Positions 10,513 to 62,983 are shown, counted from the first letter of the stretch. The stretch: DNA of 64,000 nt from Allosphingosinicella sp. (GCA_035502235.1 DATJUQ010000027.1:5555-69554), one strand, 5' to 3'. A program made the numbers and translations. The notes: generated by a model from the sequence alone, not told the origin.

Positions 10513-11103
10513 CTATTTGTCCAAGAGTATTTGGAAACGTTGAAGTAGGCGAGACAGACTAGGCGCATTCGCCGCAGCACCTTCGATGCTCCATTTATCC
10601 CAAATATAAGCCTCCAATATCGAATTGTACTCAGGGCCCACCGAGGCGCCAGAGCCGCCTCTCGGAACCAGTCCATCCCGTATTTTTCTATGACGCGTTT
10701 GATTAGCCAGAAGGATCATGGCTTCCTTCGGATGAGCCAAGCTCTCAGGATCAAGTGGTATTTTGGTCAAACTCACACCCAGAAATTGAGCGAGATTAGT
10801 CCGGTCTGCTATTATCCAGCTTTCCACCTCTCGCACAACAATACGGAGTAGTAGATTTGGATATTCGTCTCGCTCCGGTAGGATCTTCTCCAGCAAGGCT
10901 GGCGCGCAGGGTGCGGCATCCAAATCTCTGAAAACCAACCAGGGTGAATAAGTAGAAGCAGCAGCAAATCCCCGAAGCCCGCTATCGACGCGGCCACATC
11001 CATTCCGATTGTGAGAGGCCGCGACCTCGCACCCAAAATGCGCGACGATTTTCTCAGCAACAGCGAGGTGGAGAAGATCCTCTCCTGCTATGGAGAAGTA
11101 CAT
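10513..11103 (-). CDS. TOPRIM-fold protein, DUF4276-like (putative nuclease)
   Basis: N-terminal GED, central RDLD (DxD), VREVESWIIAD; lower GC; ATG directly follows the ATPase TAA. Confidence 0.7.
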   Translation of the reverse strand: MYFSIAGEDLLHLAVAEKIVAHFGCEVAASHNRNGCGRVDSGLRGFAAASTYSPWLVFRDLDAAPCAPALLEKILPERDEYPNLLLRIVVREVESWIIADRTNLAQFLGVSLTKIPLDPESLAHPKEAMILLANQTRHRKIRDGLVPRGGSGASVGPEYNSILEAYIWDKWSIEGAAANAPSLSRLLQRFQILLDK

Positions 11104-12276
11104 TTAATCTACTACGGCCTCAAAGAGAGATAGCTGTCGAGAGTTGGACGGTCGGACCAAGGGGAACACTGCATCCGCGACAGTGATTCCACCCTGCAAG
11201 AGGAGGCGAACCTGCTGATTGTTAATTGCTGTCTGAACTTTGGTGCCCTCATGGGCGCTAGCTAGGAGGTGCACCTCATCTAACGCAACCCCTTGATCCG
11301 ACAGTAGGGCCTCGGAGTGTGTGGTCACAAGTATCTGACGGCCGCTGCGCCTTGCTGCACGGCTAAACACTGACGGCAGGTGCTGGACGACAGCAGGATG
11401 CAAAGAAAGTTCGGGCTCCTCGAGCAGTAGTGACCCGCCACTTTCCATGAGGGCCCAGAGTAGACCCATCAATCTAAGTGTACCGTCGCTAAACTGAGCT
11501 TCAGTTTGCCAAGCTCCTGTGGCTCGCCAGTGCTCATAGCGACCCTTAAGATGCCAAAATCCCTTAGTATCCTGCTCCAGTGTCAGCTCACTGAGCTGCG
11601 GAACGGCAAATTTTATACTATCGGCTATGCGCCTCAGGCGGGAATCGCGGGTTCTCTTTTGCGTATTGGCTACCAACTCCAAGAAGTCGCCGCCATAAGG
11701 ATCTTCGAGTCTGCCGAAGGAGCGATCGGGTTCGCGAACAATTTGCGGCACGATATGTCTATAATTAATGGAGGCAAAGAAGCTTGCTAAGGGCCTGAAT
11801 TCTTTATTCGCTGAAATCTGTTCTATGTGGGTTTGGCTCAGAAGTGCCTCATCTGCGATGTCGTTTTCGTTTGGCCGGCTCAGGACTATTTGTTCATTGC
11901 GCCAAATACTTTCCTCAAGTATTTTGGGGTTTCGATTATTGTCTTGACCAAATGCAATCCGGTATCGCCAGGCGTTAGGACGATCATCGGACCCAATAGA
12001 AACATCAATGACAACGTCTGTTCGTTTCCGGGTAAAAAGGCTCCTGATCGCCGAGACACCTCCCCTAGCTTCGATGGCCTCGCGAAATCCACCGCCGGTG
12101 CGAGCGACGTCTCTAAGGAAACGGAAAACATCCAGCAAATTCGACTTGCCGGCGGCATTCGCGCCAACGAAAAAGGCGCGTCTTTGGAGGGTTATTTCAA
12201 ACTCCCCAAAGTTCTTCCAACGCTCTGCATGTAAGCGCGTAAAGAAGAGGTCAGATTCTTCTATATTATCTGTCAC
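11104..12276 (-). CDS. ABC/AAA_21-type ATPase
   Basis: Walker A GANAAGKSN, signature FSDGT, Walker B LLLEEPE, H-loop VTTHS; lower GC; GTG start overlaps the nrdB TGA. Confidence 0.9.
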   Translation of the reverse strand: MTDNIEESDLFFTRLHAERWKNFGEFEITLQRRAFFVGANAAGKSNLLDVFRFLRDVARTGGGFREAIEARGGVSAIRSLFTRKRTDVVIDVSIGSDDRPNAWRYRIAFGQDNNRNPKILEESIWRNEQIVLSRPNENDIADEALLSQTHIEQISANKEFRPLASFFASINYRHIVPQIVREPDRSFGRLEDPYGGDFLELVANTQKRTRDSRLRRIADSIKFAVPQLSELTLEQDTKGFWHLKGRYEHWRATGAWQTEAQFSDGTLRLMGLLWALMESGGSLLLEEPELSLHPAVVQHLPSVFSRAARRSGRQILVTTHSEALLSDQGVALDEVHLLASAHEGTKVQTAINNQQVRLLLQGGITVADAVFPLVRPSNSRQLSLFEAVVD

Positions 12277-19947: not shown

Positions 19948-20049
19948 CCCCGCGGCCGGCGCGCCCCAAAAGGCGCAGTCCTCCCGAATAAGCACGGGCC
20001 GCCCCTCGCGGGCGTTGAATTGTGCATGGGGGAGGTTCATGGGGGCGCC

Positions 20050-20481
20050 ATGCTTTCTCAACGAACGCGGTATACAATCAGGGCGCTGCTGCACCTCGCC
20101 GACCGCTATGGGGAAGGCCCGGTGCAGCTCAGCGAGATCGCGCAGGCGCAGAACCTGCCCGGCAAGTTCCTGACCGTGATCCTCTCCCAGATGCGCCGCG
20201 CCGGCCTGGTCGAGACGATGCGCGGCCGCGAGGGCGGCTATTGGCTGGCCCGGCCGCCGGCCGCGATCACCTATGGCGAGATCGTGCGGCTGACCCGCGG
20301 CTCGCTGGGCCTGCTGCCCTGCGCCAGCCGGCTCGCCTACGAGCAGTGCAAGAATTGCATCAGCGAGGACCAGTGCCGCCTGCACCGGGCGATGCTGATG
20401 GTCCGCGACGAGACCGCGCGCATCCTCGACGGACTCAGCCTCGCGGACAAGGTCGAGGTCGAAGAGCAAGTCGAGGCATGA
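20050..20481 (+). CDS. Rrf2 family transcriptional regulator
   Basis: YTIRALLHLA...L.VILSQM...GLVE..RG..GGY.LA; four Cys (PCAS...CKNC...C). Confidence 0.92.
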   Translation: MLSQRTRYTIRALLHLADRYGEGPVQLSEIAQAQNLPGKFLTVILSQMRRAGLVETMRGREGGYWLARPPAAITYGEIVRLTRGSLGLLPCASRLAYEQCKNCISEDQCRLHRAMLMVRDETARILDGLSLADKVEVEEQVEA

Positions 20482-21770
20482 CGGGCAAAAGGGTCGCGGT
20501 CATCGGCGCGGGGGCGTCGGGGACCTTGCAGGCGCTTCACCTGCGGCGCGCGGGCGCCCGCGTCACCCTGATCGAGCGCGGCCCCCGGCCCGGGCGCGGC
20601 GTCGCCTACGGCACCCGGCAGGCCGAGCATCTGCTGAACGTGCCCGCGCGGCGGATGGGGGCCTATGCCGACAGGCCCGACCATTTCGCCCGCTGGTGGG
20701 CCGACCGCACCGACTTCGCCGCCACCGAGGAGGATTATGCGCCGCGCATGGTCTATGGCGATTATCTGACCGAATTGCTGCGCGACGCCGACGTGCCGGT
20801 GGCGCGGGGCGAGGCGGTGGACATCGCCGACGGGGCGGTGGTGCTGGCCGACGGCGCCCGGCTGGCGGCGGACCATGTGGTGCTGGCGCCGGGCAATTTC
20901 CCGCCGGCGACGCCGCGCGGCCTCGACGTCGCGGCGCTCGGCGAAAAGTGGATCGACGATCCCTGGGCGGGCGGGCTGGCGGGGCTGGGGAAGGACGACA
21001 CGCTCTTCCTGCTCGGCACCGGGCTGACCGCGGTCGACGTGGCGCTGACCCTGGAGGCGAGCGGCTTCAAGGGGCGGATCGTGGCGCTATCGCGGCGCGG
21101 CCTGCTGCCCCGCGTCCATGGCCTGCGCGAACCGATGGTCGCCGCGCGCGCGGACCTGGTGCCGGCCTGCCTGCCGATGCTCCGGCGGGTGCGGGCGCGG
21201 ACCCAGGAGGTGGGCTGGCGCAGCGCGGTGCAGGAATTGCGCACGGTCACGCAATGGCTCTGGGAGCAGGCGAGCGAGGCCGAGCGGCGCCGCTTCCTGC
21301 GCCATTTGCGGCCCTGGTGGGACGTGCACCGGCACAAACTCGCGCCGGCGATCGGGGCGACGATCGAGGCGATGCGGCTCGACGGGCGGCTGATCGTGGC
21401 GAGCGGGCGGCTGCTGTCGGCGATTCCGGCCGCCGGCGGCGCGGAGATCGCGTTCCGGCCGCGCGGGGGCGACGGCGTCGAGCGGCTGTGCGCGGCGCGG
21501 CTGGTCAATTGCACCGGGCCGGAAAGCGACATCGCCCGCGCCGGCGAGCCTTTGCTGGACGCGCTGCTGGCGTCGGGCGCGATCCGGCAGGACGCGCTGC
21601 GGGTGGGCGTGGACGTGGACCTGGAGTGCCGCGCGATCGGCGCGGACGGGGCGGCGAGCGAGACCCTGTCGGTGATCGGGCCGGTGACGCGCGGCACCTT
21701 CTGGGAGAGCGTGGCGGTGCCCGACATCAGGGTGCAGGCGGCGGCGGTGGCGGCGCGGCTCTGCGGGTGA
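20478..21770 (+). CDS. FAD/NAD(P)-binding oxidoreductase (YdhS-like)
   Basis: VAVIGAGASG, GRGVAYGT...HLLNVPA..M, GTGLTAVD, VNCTGP, GTFWESVAVP; ATGA overlap with rrf2. Confidence 0.85.
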   Translation: MTGKRVAVIGAGASGTLQALHLRRAGARVTLIERGPRPGRGVAYGTRQAEHLLNVPARRMGAYADRPDHFARWWADRTDFAATEEDYAPRMVYGDYLTELLRDADVPVARGEAVDIADGAVVLADGARLAADHVVLAPGNFPPATPRGLDVAALGEKWIDDPWAGGLAGLGKDDTLFLLGTGLTAVDVALTLEASGFKGRIVALSRRGLLPRVHGLREPMVAARADLVPACLPMLRRVRARTQEVGWRSAVQELRTVTQWLWEQASEAERRRFLRHLRPWWDVHRHKLAPAIGATIEAMRLDGRLIVASGRLLSAIPAAGGAEIAFRPRGGDGVERLCAARLVNCTGPESDIARAGEPLLDALLASGAIRQDALRVGVDVDLECRAIGADGAASETLSVIGPVTRGTFWESVAVPDIRVQAAAVAARLCG

Positions 21771-21814: not shown

Positions 21815-23155
21815 TCAGATCACGATCCGGAACAGGGCGCCGCCGCCCTCGCGGTCGCCGACGCTGATCGCGCCGCGGTGGGCGAGGACGACCTGGCGGG
21901 CGAGGCTGAGGCCGACGCCGGTCCCTTCCTGCTTGGTGGTGAAGAAGGGGAGGAAGATGTCCTGCTTCAGCCCCTCGGGCACGCCGGGGCCGTTGTCGGC
22001 GACCTCGATCTGGGCGCGGCCGGAGCGGGTGCGGGTGAAGCTCAGCCAGACATGCGGGTCGCCGGCATGGGCCTTGGCCGCCTGGCCGGCATTGCGGATC
22101 AGGTTGATCAGCACCTGGCTCATCAGGTCGGGATCGGCGTCGAGATTGGGGACGCCGTCGACCGACAGAGTGAAGCCGATCCCGTCCATCCGGTCGCTGG
22201 CGCGGAACAGGCTTTCCAGCTCCCGGCCCCAGGCGGCGATGTCGATCGGGCGGCGGCGGACCTCGGGCGCGCGGCTGATCTGGCGGTAGCTCTCGACGAA
22301 GTGCATCACCCCGTCGGCGCGGCGGGAGAGCGTCTCCACCGCCATGCGGGCGTCGGCGAGATCGGCGTTCGCGCCCTGGTCGACGCCGCGCATCAGATCG
22401 ACCGCGGTATGGGCGAGGCTGGTGACCGGGGTCATCGAGTTCATGATCTCGTGGGTGAGCACGCGGATCAGGTCCGACTGGGCGGCGATCTCGACCGCGT
22501 TCAGCTCGCCCTGGATCGGCTGGACGGCGACGACCCGGACCAAGCCGCCGAGCCGGTGCACGATCGCGGCGCTGACCAGCATGGTCTGCGGCACGCCGTC
22601 GGAGAGCAAGGGCACGAGCCGGGGCCGGTTCACCGCGCCGCCCTCCAGCGCCGAGGCGAAGGCCTCGCCATATTCGCGGAAATCCTCGACCCGGACGCCC
22701 TTGTGGCGGACGAGGAGGCGGCGCGCGGCCTTGTTGGCGAGCTCGACCTTGCCGTTGTCGACGGTGAGCAGGGCGGTCGGGGCGTCGTCGAGCACCGCCT
22801 CGTAGAAGCGGTTGGCGTCGATCAGTTTGTGGCGCTCGTCGCGCAGCTTCTTCACCGCCTCGTCGAGCACCGCGCTGAGATCGCCGAAGCCCGAGCCCTG
22901 GCCGCGGTTGGAGAAGCCTTGCGAGAAATCGCCGAAGCGGACCGCGTCGATGAAGCGGGCGAGCTCGAGATTGGTGCGCTGGATGTAGCGCCAGAGCATG
23001 AAGGCGCCGCCGAGGACGAGCAGGCCGGCGGCGATCCGCGCCGCGCCCAGATCCGCGCGGCCGAGCGCGGCGACGAACAGGAAGACCAGGCCGAGGAGCA
23101 AGGCGAAGCGCCAGGCGAGGCCGAGCACGAAGCGGTTGTGGAAGTGGAGGCTCAT
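21815..23155 (-). CDS. Sensor histidine kinase (2 TM, PAS-like, HisKA/HATPase)
   Basis: HEIMNSMTP H-box, NLIRNA N-box, DNGPG, FFTTK, GTGVGLSL. Confidence 0.93.
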   Translation of the reverse strand: MSLHFHNRFVLGLAWRFALLLGLVFLFVAALGRADLGAARIAAGLLVLGGAFMLWRYIQRTNLELARFIDAVRFGDFSQGFSNRGQGSGFGDLSAVLDEAVKKLRDERHKLIDANRFYEAVLDDAPTALLTVDNGKVELANKAARRLLVRHKGVRVEDFREYGEAFASALEGGAVNRPRLVPLLSDGVPQTMLVSAAIVHRLGGLVRVVAVQPIQGELNAVEIAAQSDLIRVLTHEIMNSMTPVTSLAHTAVDLMRGVDQGANADLADARMAVETLSRRADGVMHFVESYRQISRAPEVRRRPIDIAAWGRELESLFRASDRMDGIGFTLSVDGVPNLDADPDLMSQVLINLIRNAGQAAKAHAGDPHVWLSFTRTRSGRAQIEVADNGPGVPEGLKQDIFLPFFTTKQEGTGVGLSLARQVVLAHRGAISVGDREGGGALFRIVI

Positions 23156-23163
23156 GCTTCAAT

Positions 23164-23288
23164 TCCTCCCCGGCACGGGGAGGGGGACCATGCGCAGCAT
23201 GGTGGAGGGGGCCCGGGGACCACCGCAAGCGCTGGGCCCCCTCCACCACGCGCTACGCGCGCGGTCCCCCTCCCCGTGCCGGGGAGGA
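23164..23288. repeat. REP doublet, family D (CCTCCCC...GGGGAGGGGGACC...GGTGGAGGGG)
   Basis: Homologous copies at 38251, 41448 and 50860. Confidence 0.85.
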
Positions 23289-23293
23289 GCTTG

Positions 23294-24715
<1,422 letters not shown>

Positions 24716-24732
24716 TCTCCCGCCCCGGAAAG

Positions 24733-24781
24733 TGTCCGATACCGGACAATGGCGGCGGACACCAGAGTCCGCGCGCGGACA
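24733..24781. promoter_or_regulatory. Candidate enhancer (UAS): tandem TGTCCG-N4-CGGACA palindromes
   Basis: tgtccg-atac-cggaca (24733-24748) and agtccg-cgcg-cggaca (24766-24781), 33 bp apart. Confidence 0.65.
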
Positions 24782-24867
24782 GATTTGCCCGGTTTCGGCC
24801 GCCCGGGCCGGCGCCCGCTCCGCGCTGAATGACCAGAAAATGGCGGATTTGCGCCGTTTTCCGCGGC

Positions 24868-24883
24868 TGGCACGGCTCCTGCT
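24868..24883 (+). promoter_or_regulatory. Sigma54 -24/-12 promoter
   Basis: TGGCACGGCTCCTGCT, GG-N10-GC spacing. Confidence 0.75.
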
Positions 24884-24926
24884 GAGCGGAGGGCAACAGG
24901 GATGCTTTCAAAAGGGAGTTAGGGAA

Positions 24927-25019
24927 ATGACCGTCAGCAAGTTCGAGACCTTCGCCTTCATGGCGGGCTTCATCGCCACCGGTTTCCTCACGCTCGTGGC
25001 GCTGCCGCTTGCCGCGTGA
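24927..25019 (+). CDS. Small hydrophobic protein (30 aa)
   Basis: MTVSKFETFAFMAGFIATGFLTLVALPLAA; RBS AGGGAG/AGGGAA; C/G-ending codons. Confidence 0.6.
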   Translation: MTVSKFETFAFMAGFIATGFLTLVALPLAA

Positions 25020-25119
25020 GGGGTGCCTGCGCGGCGGCGGATGGTCCCGGCCAGTATTGGCCCGGTTGCGTAACGGACTGACCGCCGCCGCCAGCCTTCA
25101 GCCTGTTTCGGGGGATTAG

Positions 25120-26424
25120 ATGAGCGTGGTGCGGATGAAAGAGCCACAGGGCGCGGTGAGCGGCGGCGGCATGGACCGGACGGTCGCGTCCCGCAGGCTC
25201 GGCACCAAGATGAAGCTCATCCTCGGCGGCGGCGGCATCCTGCTCCTCGCCCTCCTCTACTGGTTCCTCGCCCCGGCCGGGAACAGCCAGACGATCGACG
25301 CCAACAAGGTCACCATCGCCAGCGTGACCCAGGGCCGGTTCGACGATTTCCTGCCGCTCCGCGCGCAGGTCCAGCCCTCCCAGACCGTCTATCTCGATGC
25401 CGTCGAGGGCGGCCGGGTCGAGCGCGTGCTGGTCGAGGACGGCGCCATGGTGACGCAGGGCCAGCTGCTCGCCGAGCTCTCCAATTCCGATCTCCAGCTC
25501 AACGTGCTCGCCCGCCAGACCGAGGTGACGCAGCAGATCAACTCGATGCGCAGCCAGGAGCTGGCGCTGAACCAGACGCGCCTCGCCAACGAGCGCGCGC
25601 GGATCGAGGCCGATCTCGCGACCCAGACGGCGCGGCGCCAATATGAGCTGCAGCAGCCGCTCGCCGAGCGCGGCTTCGTCTCCGGCCGGACCTTTGCCGA
25701 CAGCCGCGACACCTATGAGGCGAATCGCCGCCGCTCCGACGTGCTCCGCCGCCAGCAGGGCGAGGACGAGCGCCTCCAGTCCGGCCAGCTCGCCCAGCTG
25801 CGCGCCTCCTCCGCTTCCCTGAACCAGAGCCTCGACATCGCCCGGCGCAGCCTCGACTCGCTGAACCTGCGCGCGCCCGTGTCCGGCCAGCTCACCAGCT
25901 TCGACATCCAGATCGGCCAGTCGCTGCAGCGCGGCGTCCGGCTCGGCCAGATCGACAGCGCCGGCCGCAACAAATTGCGCGCCCAGGTCGACGAATATTA
26001 TCTGAGCCGGGTCAATGAGGGCCTCACCGCCAATGCCGAGGTGAACGGCCGCACCTACCGGATGCGCGTCGCCAAAATCTATCCGCAGGTCCGCAACGGC
26101 ACCTTCGAAATCGACCTGCAGTTCGTCGGCGGGGAGCCGCAGGAGCTGCAGCGCGGCCAGACCGTGCAGCTGCGCATGACGCTCGGCGCGCCGTCGCCGG
26201 CCCGGCTCGTGCCGAACGGCGCCTTCTACAACGACACGGGCGGCAACTGGATCTTCGTGGTGGCCGCGGACGGCCGCTCGGCGGTGCGCCGCCAGGTCCG
26301 GCTCGGCCGCCGCAACGCCGATTTCGTCGAGGTGCTCGACGGGCTGCAGCCCGGGGAGCGCGTGATCACCTCCCCCTATACCGGCTTCGCCGAGCGCGAC
26401 CGGCTCACCCTCTCCGGCCAATGA
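25120..26424 (+). CDS. Periplasmic adaptor / membrane fusion protein (HlyD/MacA-like)
   Basis: N-terminal TM; EGGRVERVLVEDG lipoyl motif; LRAPVSGQL; C-terminal VEVLDGL.PGERVI. Confidence 0.92.
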   Translation: MSVVRMKEPQGAVSGGGMDRTVASRRLGTKMKLILGGGGILLLALLYWFLAPAGNSQTIDANKVTIASVTQGRFDDFLPLRAQVQPSQTVYLDAVEGGRVERVLVEDGAMVTQGQLLAELSNSDLQLNVLARQTEVTQQINSMRSQELALNQTRLANERARIEADLATQTARRQYELQQPLAERGFVSGRTFADSRDTYEANRRRSDVLRRQQGEDERLQSGQLAQLRASSASLNQSLDIARRSLDSLNLRAPVSGQLTSFDIQIGQSLQRGVRLGQIDSAGRNKLRAQVDEYYLSRVNEGLTANAEVNGRTYRMRVAKIYPQVRNGTFEIDLQFVGGEPQELQRGQTVQLRMTLGAPSPARLVPNGAFYNDTGGNWIFVVAADGRSAVRRQVRLGRRNADFVEVLDGLQPGERVITSPYTGFAERDRLTLSGQ

Positions 26425-26449
26425 CGTGGGCAAAAGAAAGGAAGATCCA

Positions 26450-27130
26450 ATGTTGAGCATGCGTGAAGTTGCGCGGGTCTACCGCACCGACACGGTCGAG
26501 ACGACCGCGCTGGACGGCATCTTCCTGGACGTGGCCGACGGCGAGTTCGTCGCGATCATGGGTCCGTCGGGCTGCGGCAAATCCACCTTGCTCAACGTGA
26601 TCGGCATGCTCGACAGCCCGTCGAGCGGTTCGTACATGTTCGACGGCACCGAGGTCGCGAACCTCTCCGAGTCGAAGCTCGCCGACTTCCGCAAGCGGAA
26701 CATCGGCTTCATCTTCCAGTCCTTCAATCTCGTCGACGAACTCAGCGTCCGCGAGAATATCGAGCTTGCGCTGCTCTACCATAACGTCCCCACGGGGGAG
26801 CGGCGCACCCGGGTCGACGCGGTGATGGACAAGGTGGGCATCGCCCACCGCGCCAAGCACCGCCCGTCGCAGCTGTCCGGCGGACAGCAGCAGCGGGTCG
26901 CCGTCGCCCGGGCCCTTGTCGCAGCCCCCAAGCTGATCCTCGCCGACGAGCCCACGGGCAATCTCGACACGGCGCATGGCGAGGAGGTGATGAAGATGCT
27001 CCAGGCGCTCAACGCCGAGGGCTCGACCATCGTCATGGTCACCCACTCGCCAGCCCATGCCGATTATGCCGGCCGCGTCGTCAACATGCTGGACGGCCGC
27101 ATCCTGGTCGAGCACCGGCGGGCGGCGTGA
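26450..27130 (+). CDS. ABC transporter ATP-binding protein (MacB/LolD-like)
   Basis: [33 protein letters not shown]. Confidence 0.95.
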
Positions 27131-27606
27131 TCCGGGGCGCGCTCCTGCTCGCGGCGCTCGCCGCCTGCGCCTCCGCCCCGGCGGCGGCGCAGCCGCGCGC
27201 GGGCACGACCGTGCTCATGTCCGAGCATCCGGGCGAGCGCGCCTTCCAGGAGCGCTACGGCTTCGCCGACGCGGTGATCGCCGGCGACAATATCTACCTG
27301 TCCGGCGTCGTCGTCGGCCAGAATCCGGGCGAGACGCTGGAGGCGGCCTATGAGCGCACCTACCGGCGGATCGCCGCCATCCTGGCCCGCGCAGGCGCGA
27401 GCTGGGACAATGTGGTCGACCTGACCTCCTATCATACGGACATCACCGCCCAGCTCGACGCGATGGCGGCCGTCCACCGGCGCCATGTCAACGCGCCCTT
27501 CCCCGCCTGGACCGCGATCGACGTCGATCGCCTCGTCCCGGACGGGGGCATTACCGAGATCAAGATCACCGCCTGGCGCCGCAACGCGCCCGCGGCGGCC
27601 AATTAA
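27127..27606 (+). CDS. RidA/YjgF family protein with signal peptide
   Basis: GFADAVIAGDNIYLSGVV...GASWDNVV...FPAWTAIDV..L....ITEIK; N-terminal Sec signal; GTGA overlap. Confidence 0.82.
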   Translation: MIRGALLLAALAACASAPAAAQPRAGTTVLMSEHPGERAFQERYGFADAVIAGDNIYLSGVVVGQNPGETLEAAYERTYRRIAAILARAGASWDNVVDLTSYHTDITAQLDAMAAVHRRHVNAPFPAWTAIDVDRLVPDGGITEIKITAWRRNAPAAAN

Positions 27607-27620
27607 GAGGGAGAGGGCAG

Positions 27621-30134
27621 ATGTGGCGTAACTATATGACCGTCGGCATCCGGGCGCTGACCAAGAACCGGACCTATGCCTTCATCAACATCGCCGGCCT
27701 CGCCATCGGCCTCGCCGCCTGCCTGATGCTGCTCCTCTACGTGCGCTACGAGACCGATTACGACAATTGGATCCCGCACGCCGAGGACACCTACCAGTTC
27801 CAGACCTATTATCGCGACCCGCAGACGGACGAGCGCAACGACCTGCAAATGTCCTCCTACGTCTCCGGCGAGCGGCTGAAGGCCGATTTCCGGGGCGAGA
27901 TCGAGGCCAGCGTCTACGTCCAGGCCAGCAGCGCCACCGTGACCCGCAACGGCGAGGCGCTGCAGGTCGACAATGTCGGCTATGTGAACGGGCCCTTCTT
28001 CGACACGATCGCGCTGCCGCTCGCCGCCGGCGACCCGCGCAGCGCGCTCGCCAATCCCGGCTCGATGGTGCTCACCGAGACCGAGGCCAACCGGCTGTTC
28101 GGCCGCACCGACGTGATCGGCCAGCAGGTGACCATCGTCGTGCGCGGCCGGCCGGTGGACCATCGCGTCACCGGCGTGCTGCGCGACCTGCCGCGCAATT
28201 CGCACATGCGCTTCTCGATGCTCGTCCGGGTCGATCCGACCGCCTGGTATGCCGAGATGCAGCAGTTCATGACCGCCTGGGGCTGGCAGGGCGGGTGGAA
28301 TTACGTCCGCCTGCGTCCCGGCACCGATCCGGCGACGATCAACAGCCGCCTGCCGGCCTGGGAAGAGCGCAACATCCCCGACCAGAATTTCGGCGGCCAG
28401 GTCACCAATCCTGGCGACTTCAGCGACTATGCGCTGGTCAACGTCCGCGACGTCCACCTGGGCCGCGCCCAGTCCGGCAGCTGGACGCCGGGCAACGACA
28501 CCAGCACGATCTGGACCTTCACGATCATCGCCTTCCTGATCCTGGGCATGGCCTGCGTGAACTTCACCAACCTCGCCACCGCCCGCGCCAGCCAGCGCGC
28601 CAGGGAGGTGGCCCTGCGCAAGGTGCTCGGCGCGAGCCGGCGCCAGCTGGTCACCCAGTTCCTCGCCGAATCCGTGCTGATCGCCTGCATCGCCATGCTG
28701 CTCGCCCTCGCCATGGTGGAGCTGCTGCTGCCGGCCTTTTCGGGCTTCCTCGAGGCCGACCTGAACATGACCTATTTCGGCAGCGGCGGCATGCTGCTTC
28801 CGATCCTGGGCCTGACCCTGCTGGTCGGCGCGGCGGGCGGCCTCTATCCGGCTTTCTACCTCTCCCGCTTCCAGCCGGCGCAGATCCTGAAGGCGAACAA
28901 GTCGTCCAGCGAGGCGTCCGGCTCCGGCCTGCTGCGCAACGTCCTGGTCGTCGCCCAGTTCGCCGTGTCGATCGGGCTGATCATCTGCACGGCCGTGGTC
29001 TGGGCGCAGACCAGCTACGCCCGCAGCGCCGATCCCGGCTACAGCCGCGACGGCCTGCTGCAGATCGAGGGGATCAGCCGGCGCCAGGTGATCCCGCTCC
29101 AGGCCGCGATGCAGCGCGAGATCGCGCGCCTGCCCGGCGTGGCCGGCGTCGGCCGCACCACGATCGGCGTCGCCACCCAGAACAGCACCAATACCGGCAT
29201 CGTCATCCCCGGCCAGGAGCTGCCCGTCGGCATCGGCATCTATTCGGTCGACCACGATTTCTTCCGGACGATGAACATCCGGCTGGTCGCGGGCCGCAGC
29301 TTCGATCGCAACCGGCCGATGGACGACGCCACCTTGCCGGTGCTCGACGATCCCGCGGCGACCCGGGCGCAGATCGCGCGCGGCGGCGTCAACATCGTGA
29401 TCAACGAGCTCGCCGCCCGGCGCCTCGGCTTCGCCAACCCGGCCGACGCGGTCGGGCGCAGCTTCCGCGCGGCTTTGGCCGAGGAGGAGTTCGGCCTGGT
29501 CCCGGTCCACATCATCGGCGTCGTCCAGGATTCGCGCTTCCGCTCGATCCGCGAGCCGATCGAGCCGATCATGTTCCGGGTCAGCGAGACCGACCCCTCC
29601 TACATGCTCGTCCGCATCGCGCCCGATGCCGATCCCGCCGCCGTGCGCGGCGCCGTCGAGGCGGTGTGGAAGCGGATGGTCTCCGACGCGCCCTTCGCCG
29701 CCGATTTCAGCGAGGACATCATCCTCGAACTGTACAAGGCGGAGGCGTCGCGGGCGAAGGTGTTCGCGGGCTTCGCGATGCTCGCGATCGTCATCGCCTG
29801 CCTGGGCCTGTTCGGCCTCGCCGCCTTCACCGCCGAGCGGCGGACGAAGGAGATCGGCATCCGCAAGGTGCTGGGCGCCAGAATCCGCGACATCGTGGGG
29901 CTGCTCGCCTGGCAATTCTCCAAGCCGGTGATCATCGCCATGCCCTTCGCCTGGGCCGCCGCCTGGTGGGCGATGAAGAGCTGGCTCGACACGTTCGACA
30001 CGCGCATCGACCTGGGGCCCGTGCCCTTCGTCGCCGCCGGGTTGCTCGCCCTCGCCATCGCGATCGGGACCATTGCCAGCCACGCCTTCAAGGTGGCGCG
30101 GGCCAATCCGATCCTCGCCCTGCGCTACGAATAG
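27621..30134 (+). CDS. ABC transporter permease (duplicated MacB_PCD/FtsX)
   Basis: INIAGLAIG, ACVNFTNLATARA..RAREVALRKVLGA, RRTKEIGIRKVLGA, NPILALRYE. Confidence 0.95.
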   Translation: MWRNYMTVGIRALTKNRTYAFINIAGLAIGLAACLMLLLYVRYETDYDNWIPHAEDTYQFQTYYRDPQTDERNDLQMSSYVSGERLKADFRGEIEASVYVQASSATVTRNGEALQVDNVGYVNGPFFDTIALPLAAGDPRSALANPGSMVLTETEANRLFGRTDVIGQQVTIVVRGRPVDHRVTGVLRDLPRNSHMRFSMLVRVDPTAWYAEMQQFMTAWGWQGGWNYVRLRPGTDPATINSRLPAWEERNIPDQNFGGQVTNPGDFSDYALVNVRDVHLGRAQSGSWTPGNDTSTIWTFTIIAFLILGMACVNFTNLATARASQRAREVALRKVLGASRRQLVTQFLAESVLIACIAMLLALAMVELLLPAFSGFLEADLNMTYFGSGGMLLPILGLTLLVGAAGGLYPAFYLSRFQPAQILKANKSSSEASGSGLLRNVLVVAQFAVSIGLIICTAVVWAQTSYARSADPGYSRDGLLQIEGISRRQVIPLQAAMQREIARLPGVAGVGRTTIGVATQNSTNTGIVIPGQELPVGIGIYSVDHDFFRTMNIRLVAGRSFDRNRPMDDATLPVLDDPAATRAQIARGGVNIVINELAARRLGFANPADAVGRSFRAALAEEEFGLVPVHIIGVVQDSRFRSIREPIEPIMFRVSETDPSYMLVRIAPDADPAAVRGAVEAVWKRMVSDAPFAADFSEDIILELYKAEASRAKVFAGFAMLAIVIACLGLFGLAAFTAERRTKEIGIRKVLGARIRDIVGLLAWQFSKPVIIAMPFAWAAAWWAMKSWLDTFDTRIDLGPVPFVAAGLLALAIAIGTIASHAFKVARANPILALRYE

Positions 30135-30250
30135 AGAAACGAAACAAGGACCCCCGGCATGGCCTTCGTCGAAGCCTCCCGTCTCTTGGTGGAAAAATCC
30201 GCCCGCGGGAGCCGCGACCGGGCCATGCCGGGCCACCGGGGAAAGCCAGC

Positions 30251-30484
30251 ATGAACACGACCCTCATCATCGCCGCGACCGCGCTCGCCATCACCGCCAC
30301 GATCTGCCTGGCCGCCATGCGGGCCTGGCGCGGTTGGCTCGACTATAAGAGGCTGGAGCTGGCCGCCCGCGCGGGCGGCGAGGCCGCCGGGGCGAGCGAG
30401 GAGGTCGGCGTGCGCATCGAGCTCGCCGCCGTGCGCGAGCGGCTGAAGAAGCTCGAGGCGATCGCCAGCGGCGTGGAGCTGTAG
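30251..30484 (+). CDS. Small single-TM coiled-coil protein, PspB-like
   Basis: N-terminal TM, then ELAAVRERLKKLEAIA, which resembles the PspB MRERIQALESIL tail. Confidence 0.55.
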   Translation: MNTTLIIAATALAITATICLAAMRAWRGWLDYKRLELAARAGGEAAGASEEVGVRIELAAVRERLKKLEAIASGVEL

Positions 30485-44276: not shown

Positions 44277-44363
44277 TGGTGCCCAGAAGAGGACTCGAAC
44301 CTCCACGCCCTTGCGAGCGCCAGCACCTGAAGCTGGTGCGTCTACCAATTCCGCCATCTGGGC
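44277..44363 (-). tRNA. tRNA-Leu(CAG)
   Basis: GCCCAGATGGCGGAATTGGTAGACGC...CCAGC-TTCAGGT-GCTGG, long variable arm, GTTCGAGTC, CCA end. Confidence 0.97.
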
Positions 44364-44439
44364 ACGGGGTAGGCCGCGCGCCCTAGGGGAGCGGGCGCGC
44401 TTTTGTCAACGCGGGGACTCGGATTGTCTTGCCTGGAAA

Positions 44440-44515
44440 TGGTGCCGCTTAACGGACTCGAACCGTTGACCCCATCATTACGAATGATGTGCTCTACCAG
44501 CTGAGCTAAAGCGGC
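44440..44515 (-). tRNA. tRNA-Thr(CGT)
   Basis: GCCGCTTTAGCTCAGCTGGTAGAGC-CATCA-TTCGTAA-TGATG...GTTCGAGTC...GCGGCACCA. Confidence 0.97.
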
Positions 44516-60943: not shown

Positions 60944-60971
60944 TTCACATTAAGTCCCTGATCCCTATATA
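60944..60971 (+). promoter_or_regulatory. Probable sigma70 promoter of ssrA
   Basis: TTCACA-N16-TATATA just before the acceptor piece. Confidence 0.45.
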
Positions 60972-61345
60972 GGGCCTGCCGGTTTCGGCCGGCTATGGCG
61001 ATAAATCGTGTCGTGCAATAGACACAGCGGACCCGGGGGCAGTACCCGGCGGCTCCACCACTTGACCCGGTCGGTCAGCCCGCATGAAGCGTGCCGACCG
61101 AGCGGCTCAGCTAGAGGGGCCGAACCAGGATCGACGTGTGTTGAAAAGCGGCGCCTTCGCCCGGAATGGGACCACCGCGACGGCCCATCACACAAGTGCC
61201 AACGACAACGAGGCGCTCGCGATTGCCGCGTAACGAGGTCCTCACGGACTAAGTTATATTGGACAAAAGCGCGGTTCGGGCCGCACCGGGCAACAGAAGC
61301 GGATTCCAGCGGTACGGGGAGCACCGGGCAACAGAAGCTCCCCAC
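60972..61345 (+). ncRNA. ssrA: Two-piece (circularly permuted) tmRNA; tag ANDNEALAIAA
   Basis: Acceptor piece ends ...GGCGGCTCCACCA at 61060; coding piece starts GGGGCCGAA at 61116; tag ORF 61198-61233. Outer ends are approximate. Confidence 0.93.
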
Positions 61346-62492: not shown

Positions 62493-62526
62493 TGTCCGCC
62501 AGCGGACAGAGCGGGCAGTTTGTCCG
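62493..62526. promoter_or_regulatory. Candidate enhancer TGTCCG-N4-CGGACA (same as at 24733) plus half-site
   Basis: tgtccg-ccag-cggaca at 62493-62508; tgtccg at 62521. Confidence 0.6.
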
Positions 62527-62625
62527 GCGGTTTTTCCCAACATTTGGTCCATGCCGCCGCCTGCCCCGGGCCTGCTTCCCTCCTTATTTTCGGGATAGCA
62601 CTGAAAAGTAACGGAATTCCGATTC

Positions 62626-62641
62626 TGGCACGGCCCGTGCT
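62626..62641 (+). promoter_or_regulatory. Sigma54 -24/-12 promoter
   Basis: TGGCACGGCCCGTGCT, GG-N10-GC. Confidence 0.7.
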
Positions 62642-62695: not shown

Positions 62696-62983
62696 ATGCA
62701 CGCCAACGAATCCCTGATCGCCCGCGACGACACCTTCCTCGGCGTCTGCCAGGCCATTGGCGAGGATTTCGGCTTCAACCCGACCTGGCTGCGGCTCGCC
62801 TTCGCCGTGCCGGTGCTGTTCGCCCCGGTGGCCGCGCTCGCCGCCTATCTCGCGCTCGGCGTGATCGTCCTTCTCTCCCGCCTGCTCGCCCCGCGCCCGC
62901 GCCGCGCGGCCAAGGCGGCGCCGGCGGACCTGGCGCCGGCCGCGGACGGGCTGGACCAATATGCTTTGCCCATGGCCGCCTGA
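62696..62983 (+). CDS. PspC domain protein
   Basis: FLGVCQAIGEDFGFNPTWLRL...AYL motif; RBS AAGGAG. Confidence 0.88.
   Translation: MHANESLIARDDTFLGVCQAIGEDFGFNPTWLRLAFAVPVLFAPVAALAAYLALGVIVLLSRLLAPRPRRAAKAAPADLAPAADGLDQYALPMAA

Follow-up and report, generated by a model that had tools for sequence, protein, structure and literature searches.

The stretch of DNA analysed here, a 64-kb segment from Allosphingosinicella sp. (GCA_035502235.1 DATJUQ010000027.1:5555-69554; GC content, 70%) referred to below as the window, carried an operon for an FtsX-type ABC exporter, a divergent pair of genes encoding a histidine kinase and a sigma-54-dependent activator, and a gene for a PspC-domain membrane protein preceded by the same kind of promoter as the exporter operon. 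An earlier note made from this sequence had proposed that these genes form a regulon, and our results suggested that they probably do. Genes were assigned from Pfam domains, membership in named families was judged by the curated equivalog cut-offs of NCBIfam, and shuffled sequences gave the chance expectation for motifs in the window.

The activator gene (23294-24709, minus strand) encoded a response regulator of 471 amino acids (aa) with a receiver domain (REC; Response_reg, E = 5.2e-20), a AAA+ domain (Sigma54_activat PF00158, E = 6.6e-60, 202 bits), and a Fis-type helix-turn-helix (HTH) domain (HTH_8, E = 1.1e-12). The AAA+ domain, the receiver combined with a Fis-type HTH, and a GAFTGA-type loop placed the protein among the NtrC-family bacterial enhancer-binding proteins (bEBPs). 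Its sigma-54 contact loop reads GAFTDA (residue 233), which is among the loop substitutions expected to keep activation in a list for Desulfovibrio (PMC4641369). The closest solved relatives were NtrC4/NtrC1 and ZraR, and homologues with 78-100% identity were 463-480 aa long, with one of 519 aa. The activator scored below the cut-off of every named bEBP equivalog that was considered, namely PrsR (347/503), NtrC (333/559), AtoC (322/714), ZraR (307.7 vs 760), NtrX (301/600), and PspF (241.8 vs 443.55 bits). Neither a second bEBP nor a paralogue of any part of the module was present in the window.

The kinase gene (21815-23155, minus strand) encoded a protein of 446 aa with two hydrophobic helices followed by PAS, DHp, and HATPase domains (Pfam PAS_8 and HATPase_c). 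In a crude hydropathy analysis, the two N-terminal helices spanned residues of about 10-28 and 36-54 and were separated by only about 7 residues; therefore, the kinase appeared to have no periplasmic sensor domain, and the PAS domain was placed in the cytoplasm. Beside the kinase gene, relatives had a conserved pair of genes for an Rrf2-type regulator and a flavin adenine dinucleotide-dependent oxidoreductase, which in the window appeared fused in a single long open reading frame (ORF; 20022-21770).

On the plus strand, the exporter operon began with a leader gene (24927-25019) that had a Shine-Dalgarno sequence, AAGGGAG, and encoded a hydrophobic peptide of 30 aa, MTVSKFETFAFMAGFIATGFLTLVALPLAA. 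It was followed by genes for a HlyD-family periplasmic adaptor (membrane fusion protein) of 434 aa with one N-terminal transmembrane (TM) helix (25120-26424; Pfam HlyD_3 and HlyD_D23) and for an ABC ATPase (26426-27130; ABC_tran). By the longest ORF the ATPase had 234 aa, and its true start is probably near position 26450 because its orthologues had 226 aa. Between the ATPase and permease genes lay a gene encoding a member of the RidA/L-PSP family that had an N-terminal signal and a lipobox-like LAAC (27127-27606; Ribonuc_L-PSP), which among the orthologous loci occurred only in the window and in L005; this gene and the leader ORF were additional to the account in the earlier note. The permease gene (27621-30134) encoded a duplicated, ADOP-like protein of 837 aa, 2 x (MacB_PCD + FtsX), and relatives had one to three permease copies in tandem.

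The exporter had been described as MacAB-like and of tripartite type. With two MacB_PCD and two FtsX domains, the permease had the 4-TM FtsX fold and the MacB periplasmic core domain, and its nearest solved relative was MacB (5lil, E = 3.6e-8). Its best full-length NCBIfam match was ADOP (TIGR03434; residues 8-837; 316 bits vs a cut-off of 622.3), followed by DarB, likewise below its cut-off. The best matches of the adaptor and the ATPase were DarC and DarD, respectively, and the ATPase also matched the N-terminal half of MacB and LolD, all below cut-off; scores for the MacA equivalog (adaptor, 30/342) and the MacB equivalog (ATPase, 232/966; permease, 25/966) were below cut-off as well. The likeness to MacAB thus held for the MacB_PCD/FtsX fold and the HlyD-family adaptor, but the pump is not MacB proper, since its ATPase is encoded by a separate gene and its permease is duplicated in the manner of ADOP or YbbP. 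As for a tripartite pump, there were no homologues of pcm, tolC, or TonB in the window, but three related alphaproteobacterial genomes placed pcm-tolC under the same signal, as described below.

The last gene on this side (30251-30484, plus strand) encoded a protein of 77 aa with one N-terminal TM helix (residues 5-23) and a conserved C-terminal helix, VRERLKKLEAIASGVEL; it was conserved in L002-L004 and is probably part of the exporter operon. Its family had at least 3,699 homologues, and among the 120 listed none had a Pfam domain or a name. The ORF had been called PspB-like, and it is real, conserved, and similar to PspB in architecture; however, four family members gave no match to PF06667 or to the NCBIfam PspB model even at E <= 10. 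An hhalign comparison of the family with E. coli PspB aligned 17 C-terminal columns with 29% probability and a pairwise E of 6e-4. Directly upstream was an ORF of 31 aa (30159-30254) with a stop codon overlapping the start of the 77-aa gene (ATGA), which may be spurious.

The PspC-domain gene (62696-62983, plus strand) encoded a membrane protein of 95 aa with a variable Ala/Pro-rich tail ending in DQYALPMAA. The domain was assigned as PF04024 (39.1 bits; gathering score, 25; E = 6e-10), and the protein scored 27 bits for the canonical PspC equivalog TIGR02978, with a cut-off of 104. Psp domains were absent from the ORFs neighbouring pspC, and the window contained neither PspA nor PspF. Of the dispersed Psp-like genes in the earlier account, the PspC-domain gene behind the second sigma-54 box was therefore borne out, and the 77-aa ORF was not, as PspB.

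Upstream of the exporter operon, a perfect palindrome, TGTCCGATACCGGACA, was located at 24733-24748, ending 119 bp before the T of TGGCAC in the predicted sigma-54 promoter TGGCACGGCTCCTGCT (24868-24883, plus strand; -24 GG, -12 GC). A second site, AGTCCGCGCGCGGACA, with one mismatch, was located at 24766-24781, 86 bp before TGGCAC and 33 bp from the first, centre to centre, so that the "tandem" palindromes reported earlier were present as one perfect and one imperfect copy; an additional CGGACA half-site lay between them (24756-24761). Upstream of pspC, a perfect palindrome, TGTCCGCCAGCGGACA, was located at 62493-62508, 117 bp before TGGCAC of the predicted promoter TGGCACGGCCCGTGCT (62626-62641, plus strand), with an additional TGTCCG half-site at 62521-62526. 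The recurrence of the palindrome at 62493 and the start-to-start spacings between palindrome and box (135 bp for the exporter and 133 bp for pspC) agreed with the earlier note.

The exporter and pspC palindromes were identical at all 12 specified bases, and their sigma-54 boxes agreed at 14 of 16 positions. In the 64 kb, TGGCAC-N6-TGC had exactly two matches, at 24868 and 62626, and perfect TGTCCG-N4-CGGACA likewise had no match other than these two, vs 0.01 expected from shuffles. Clusters of half-sites were found at the exporter and pspC promoters, with no third cluster. The joint pattern of motif plus box, with the gap coded as N{30,60}VN{29,59}, occurred twice in the window and never in shuffled sequences, which confirmed the original observation. 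The GG at -24, the GC at -12, the 10-bp spacing, the TGGCAC-N5-TTGC-like sequence, and the conservation in orthologues all support the prediction of sigma-54 promoters.

Each promoter region contained a further conserved block with an A/T-flanked inverted repeat. The block at 24836-24867 (plus strand), consisting of an A-tract, GGCGGA-WWT-(C/G)CGCC, and a T-tract, abutted the -24 element and was found in 6/6 orthologous promoters; it may be a site for a bending protein or an intrinsic bend. The block at 62519-62549 (plus strand), TTGGC(C/G)G-TTTT-(C/G)CCAACAT(T/C)TGG, lay between the activating site and the promoter of pspC in 4/4 pspC promoters and may be bound by an architectural protein.

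We then compared the window with orthologous exporter loci, which were L001-L005 (activators 78-92% identical) and, from the genome scan described below, L026, L032, and L035. Every orthologous locus fetched had the regulator and kinase genes pointing away from the exporter operon and kept the half-sites as well as the sigma-54 box. The box in L001-L005 read TGGCA[CT]GGCTC[CA]TGC, and an equivalent of the second exporter site, with a gap of 86-87 bp, was present in L001, L002, and L003. The positions of the palindromes shifted between genomes in steps of nearly one DNA turn, with gaps of 66-68, 86-87, 99, and 117-119 bp. Among three orthologous pspC loci, which were fetched separately (L126, L127, and L128), L126 had an identical palindrome, gap, and sigma-54 box and was on the same contig as L003, the exporter locus of the closest relative; L127 had TGTCCGCCCGCGGACA at the same 117-bp gap and an identical box. 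Lack of conservation in orthologous promoters, which the earlier note had named as grounds for rejecting its proposal, was thus not what we found at the exporter loci or at L126 and L127.

The same signal preceded other genes in related genomes. In Sphingomicrobium and other alphaproteobacterial metagenome-assembled genomes (MAGs), the signal, with gaps of 117-119 bp, was followed by a leader peptide ending in SLPIA and then by a 61-aa PspC-domain protein. It preceded pcm-tolC (PCMT and OEP by Pfam) in L078 and in L053, the latter labelled Allosphingosinicella, and in L083 it preceded a homologous pcm start, with tolC ORFs that appear fragmented. Between promoter and pcm these loci had a conserved leader of about 125 nt (L053 4727-4860, with equivalents in L078 and L083) that contained GCCGATAAAAGCCGC and GTGTATTGCAT. 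In L107, an Allosphingosinicella MAG, the signal was followed by a leader peptide and a TonB-dependent receptor; the small ORFs opening the pspC and TonB-receptor operons of related genomes were paralogous to the leader ORF of the window. The signal also stood before proteins of 65-75 aa ending in W[HD][SG][FL]LPG[SA][FL][KR] in Lysobacterales (L093, L106, L113, and L125) and before proteins of 47-55 aa in Rhodospirillales, in tandem copies in L079 and as a single copy in L085.

A genome-wide scan for the motif plus the box, as called for in the earlier note, was run with the palindrome, a gap of 60-120 nt, and TGGCAYG-N5-TGC on one genome per species (185,579 species). It gave at least 120 matches, vs roughly 8-16 expected by chance according to our own arithmetic, and 122 promoter matches were inspected; all counts in this paragraph are for the matches listed. 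An exporter gene (adaptor, ABC, or FtsX) lay co-oriented within 1.5 kb downstream of 69/122, whereas exporter genes were upstream in 4 and on the opposite strand in 0. Of the 53 other matches, 13 offered under 1 kb of sequence for inspection. Judged from the labels of their records, the exporter matches belonged to Betaproteobacteria (17), Acidobacteriota (16), Gammaproteobacteria (10), Sphingomonadales (6), Gemmatimonadota (3), and Bacteroidota (2), and other phyla were represented by single matches. Cultivable carriers among the matches listed included Sphingosinicella sp. CPCC 101087 and LHD-64, Sphingomonas montanisoli ZX, Telluria antibiotica TW-1, Massilia spp., and Parachitinimonas caeni. 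A bEBP gene was found in the same 8-kb tile for 32 of the 69 (divergent in 20, at the operon end in 11). The TDA loop was present in 34/38 exporter-linked bEBPs, exact GAFTDA in 27/40 aligned, and the two-helix layout with a loop of 2-12 residues in 20/27 partner kinases evaluated. Spacer positions 2-3, which are central and were unconstrained in the scan, were A/T in 86-89%. The gaps between site and promoter peaked at approximately 63, 75, 85, 95, and 117 bp. Their best-fitting period was 10.9 bp, with an R of 0.49 that was reached by 0/2000 draws from a uniform null.

Taken together, these results make it likely, on the evidence of sequence, that the activator and kinase control a sigma-54 regulon with a MacB-type exporter as its cross-phylum core, to which sphingomonads have recruited a PspC-domain protein, TolC, and small peptides. 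The kinase-controlled bEBP regulon put forward in the earlier note accordingly held in its synteny, its conserved site and box, and the single bEBP in the window, whereas its link to Psp components was reduced to PspC. From the same material we infer the binding of the regulator to the motif, the dependence on sigma-54 in vivo, the signal, and the substrate. Since it has only two membrane helices with a loop of a few residues, the kinase could not read the periplasm directly and would probably do its sensing inside the membrane or by way of membrane proteins that partner with it. It would phosphorylate the REC-AAA+-HTH activator, which would assemble on helically phased TGTCCG-(R)WW(C)-CGGACA palindromes located 60-120 bp upstream of TGGCACGGC-N-C-N-TGCT promoters and remodel the closed RNA polymerase complex. 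The first target would be the operon encoding the 30-aa peptide, the adaptor, the ATPase, the RidA-like lipoprotein, the duplicated permease, and probably the 77-aa protein, and the second the PspC-domain gene, 38 kb away. The output would be a trans-envelope export pump (adaptor, type VII ABC, and TolC), as suggested by the pcm-tolC and TonB-receptor genes under the same signal in related genomes, together with small membrane-stress proteins. Most probably, the system would serve to clear a toxic compound that is membrane-active or periplasmic.

Several points weigh against this reading. The rpoN gene was not in the window, and the pspC promoter of L128, with one change in its sigma-54 box, had no recognisable palindrome. 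The exporter-linked bEBPs shared a recognition helix, LG-x-(S/T)R-xx-LYR(R/K)-x-EKHG, but this conservation is weak evidence because the motif is common among Fis-type HTH domains. The NifA site is TGT-N10-ACA, which the palindrome also satisfies, and for this reason some of the scan matches were nif promoters (nifH in L047 and iscA-like genes in L012 and L017); thus, the motif alone is not diagnostic and is not unique to this regulator family. The counts of scan matches and the periodicity statistics ignore shared ancestry, and the matches in Massilia and Acidobacteriaceae formed tight clusters. A role in stress or detoxification was read from gene content alone. NifA sites were considered for the palindromes of the window itself and rejected, as there was no nif context in the window and the association with exporters was independent of NifA.

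The leader ORF was compared among ten sphingomonad-type loci (the window, L001-L005, L026, L032, L035, and L107), in all of which it was conserved. Differences at the three codon positions numbered 437/156/454, and 197 differing codon pairs were synonymous. Because the second codon positions changed least and so many pairs were synonymous, the leader ORF behaves as a coding sequence. The peptide matched no Pfam or NCBIfam family. Leader peptides ended in ALPLAA, ALPLA, LPIA, or VPIA, and of the 120 PspC homologues listed, 117 ended in AA and 86 in L-P-x-A-A, after a variable linker. The transfer-messenger RNA of the window (60965-61324) encodes the tag ANDNEALAIAA, and by comparison with this tag the LP-x-A-A ends of leader peptides and PspC look ssrA-like. 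Genomes with a tailed PspC had no leader ORF before pspC, and those with the tail-less 61-aa PspC had one.

These features allow a further-reaching version of the regulon, which we regard as possible, if doubtful. The exporter, its kinase, its GAFTDA activator, and the enhancer motif would be an ancient unit common to many phyla, and the kinase would respond to the condition of the pump or of the small membrane proteins, as a sigma-54 form of Bce "flux sensing". In sphingomonads, the ssrA-like tails could turn leader peptides and PspC into constitutive substrates of a protease or into ligands of PDZ domains, and regulated proteolysis might set or reset the response. The complementary occurrence of tail and leader ORF would point to joint action of the peptide and PspC.

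The small ORFs could also be read as the cargo or the autoinducing signal of a peptide production and export circuit, exported by the pump, in the manner of darobactin-type DarBCD exporters, and sensed by the kinase with positive feedback. They stand first behind the promoter in sphingomonads, Lysobacterales (65-75 aa), and Rhodospirillales (tandem, 47-55 aa), the kinase has no periplasmic domain, and the best NCBIfam matches of adaptor and ATPase were the darobactin proteins DarC and DarD, with DarB second to ADOP for the permease. Every Dar match, however, was far under its cut-off, a maturation enzyme, for example of the radical SAM type, was not encoded nearby, and the peptides resemble plain membrane helices with no leader or cleavage motif. 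Among the matches listed, moreover, most lineages with the motif, promoter, and exporter lacked the small ORF, and similar peptides also preceded pspC and a TonB receptor. We therefore consider a peptide circuit unlikely.

Control of the two promoters might instead be split, with the adjacent regulator serving the exporter and another activator, PspF-like, NifA-like, or a paralogue, serving pspC, so that no single regulon exists. The agreement of the palindrome with the NifA consensus and the nif promoters matched by the same pattern would fit such an arrangement, most of the genome lies outside the window, and canonical PspF controls psp elsewhere, including in Zymomonas within Sphingomonadales (review PMC11186258). 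Nevertheless, the two sites shared all 12 specified bases, with gaps of 117 and 119 bp and boxes alike at 14/16 positions, the pspC arrangement was kept in genomes holding the orthologous regulator (L126 and L003, on one contig), and no PspA, PspF, or second bEBP was near pspC, which makes split control quite unlikely. Finally, short GC-rich palindromes are common at 70% GC, and the motif was not enriched in the window when two mismatches were allowed; but an origin by chance or as a generic repeat (of the repetitive extragenic palindromic type, or a repressor operator) with no enhancer function is extremely improbable given the excess of perfect copies (2 vs 0.01), their helical phasing to sigma-54 boxes, the A/T preference of the spacer, the orientation bias toward exporter genes (69 to 0 among the matches listed), and the conservation of the palindromes in orthologous promoters.

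With the kinase-controlled sigma-54 regulon as the preferred reading, the module can be compared with known systems. In the Bce (BceRS-BceAB) and HssRS-HrtBA systems of Firmicutes, as here, a two-component system is genetically linked to an ABC transporter with FtsX domains, its principal target, and the kinase has two membrane helices with essentially no extracellular loop (judged here by crude hydropathy). These systems use an OmpR-type regulator, whereas the module of the window has a sigma-54 AAA+ activator, -24/-12 promoters, and a remote enhancer; BceB is a 10-TM permease, whereas the permease here is 2 x (4 TM + periplasmic domain) with an adaptor and, in relatives, a co-regulated TolC. 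Of the features of a Bce-type module, a sensor-less kinase beside an FtsX transporter was therefore found, and an OmpR-type regulator and a BceB-type 10-TM permease were not. By its logic, the module may be viewed as the sigma-54 counterpart, in double-membrane bacteria, of these Firmicute modules of sensor-less kinase and FtsX transporter. The sensing and removal of membrane-active compounds is the presumed role of the Firmicute systems (Bce review, PMC11009047; HssS paper, PMC11237747), as it would be here.

PspF-PspABC of Enterobacteria resembles the module in its sigma-54 promoter, its AAA+ activator with a Fis-type HTH, and its PspC-domain target; PspF, however, has no receiver domain and is controlled by PspA, in contrast to a kinase-controlled response regulator in a window with no pspA or pspF. 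Shared with MacAB-TolC are the HlyD-family adaptor, the FtsX fold with the MacB core domain, and, in relatives, a TolC-family gene under the same signal; the differences are the separate ATPase polypeptide, the internally duplicated permease, and the equivalog scores far below cut-off. In Salmonella, macAB is controlled by PhoP and is not known to be under sigma-54. ZraSR-ZraP likewise has a kinase and an NtrC-type regulator that activate the divergent sigma-54 promoter of an envelope-protective product, but its enhancer motif is different and the score of the activator for the ZraR equivalog was low, as given above. In that system the kinase, ZraS, is equipped with a sensor domain in the periplasm, and a periplasmic chaperone is the target. 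Small membrane proteins are known as partners of pumps or kinases in the pairs AcrZ-AcrB and MgrB-PhoQ, which offer a lead for the single-helix leader peptide of about 30 aa, co-regulated here with both a two-component system and a pump; the sequences of AcrZ and MgrB are unrelated to it, and the leader peptides differ from them in sharing their C-terminal LP-x-A(A) tail with the PspC of the regulon.

The earlier description of the regulon as undescribed was largely true, except that sigma-54 promoters at FtsX permease genes had already been surveyed in silico. A survey with position-specific scoring matrices published in PLoS One in 2025 (PMC12316311) found predicted sigma-54 promoters enriched at COG0577/COG1136 (FtsX permease and ATPase) and called this a previously unrecognised regulatory axis and the first such evidence. 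It named no activator, kinase, enhancer motif, PspC, TolC, or small-peptide members. Gammaproteobacteria, Opitutia, and Bacteroidia were the enriched classes that it named, and Sphingomonadales, Betaproteobacteria, and Acidobacteriota were not among them. The module was not described in a comparative study of phage shock proteins (PMC11237479) or in an analysis of sigma-54 and the "bacterial exterior" (PMC3162934). Our literature search surfaced no experimental description of the motif, of GAFTDA activators, of sigma-54 with MacB/FtsX, or of intramembrane-sensing kinases with sigma-54, and the term "sigma-54" was absent from two reviews of MacB and tripartite pumps that the search returned, in a check for the term only.

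In soil bacteria, exporters of the MacB/FtsX type rank with the most abundant ABC systems and also with the least understood ones, and Acidobacteria carry large paralogous ADOP families; to our knowledge, almost nothing has been established about the inducers of such exporters. A regulatory code made up of the motif, the promoter, the activator subfamily, and the sensor-less kinase would make such regulons predictable from sequence data across many phyla. The finding would tie orphan PspC proteins and the export of drugs or peptides to sigma-54, and would extend to double-membrane bacteria a transporter-coupled two-component logic that has so far been a Firmicute speciality. The ssrA-like tail common to leader peptides and PspC is a testable lead on the part that small membrane proteins come to play in stress signalling.

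The leader ORF and the adaptor gene were separated by a GC-rich hairpin (25030-25092, plus strand), for which 2/16 compensatory pairs and a fold z-score of -1.34 are weak evidence. Equivalent hairpins were located at 9602-9701 in L001, 9607-9694 in L002, 9635-9721 in L004, and 9608-9691 in L005, and also in L033, L035, and L037. In four relatives the hairpin enclosed CGGACA-N4/5-TGT[CT]CG-N4-CGGACA, the inner part of which was degenerate in the window, and these palindromes lay downstream of the promoter; the hairpin may serve as an RNA structure or as an enhancer site downstream of the promoter. As for a terminator or attenuator, the hairpin had no U-tract in addition to its modest z-score and covariation. 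A search of Rfam gave no match at the promoters, the 5' untranslated regions, or the conserved pcm-tolC leader.

Of the sampled words of the window, 99% were present in a wetland metagenome run and 9% in a soil metatranscriptome, the sole RNA run listed. Near-identical proteins carried names that point to a sphingomonad similar to Allosphingosinicella or Sphingosinicella. Elsewhere in the window, a low-GC stretch (10513-12276; 54% vs about 70%) beside the gene for the small subunit of ribonucleotide reductase contained a two-gene candidate anti-phage system, with PADLOC matches to HEC-01B (E = 5e-59) and HEC-01A (E = 1e-153; AAA_21 ATPase). Genes for tRNA-Leu(CAG) and tRNA-Thr(CGT) were located at 44277-44515 on the minus strand.

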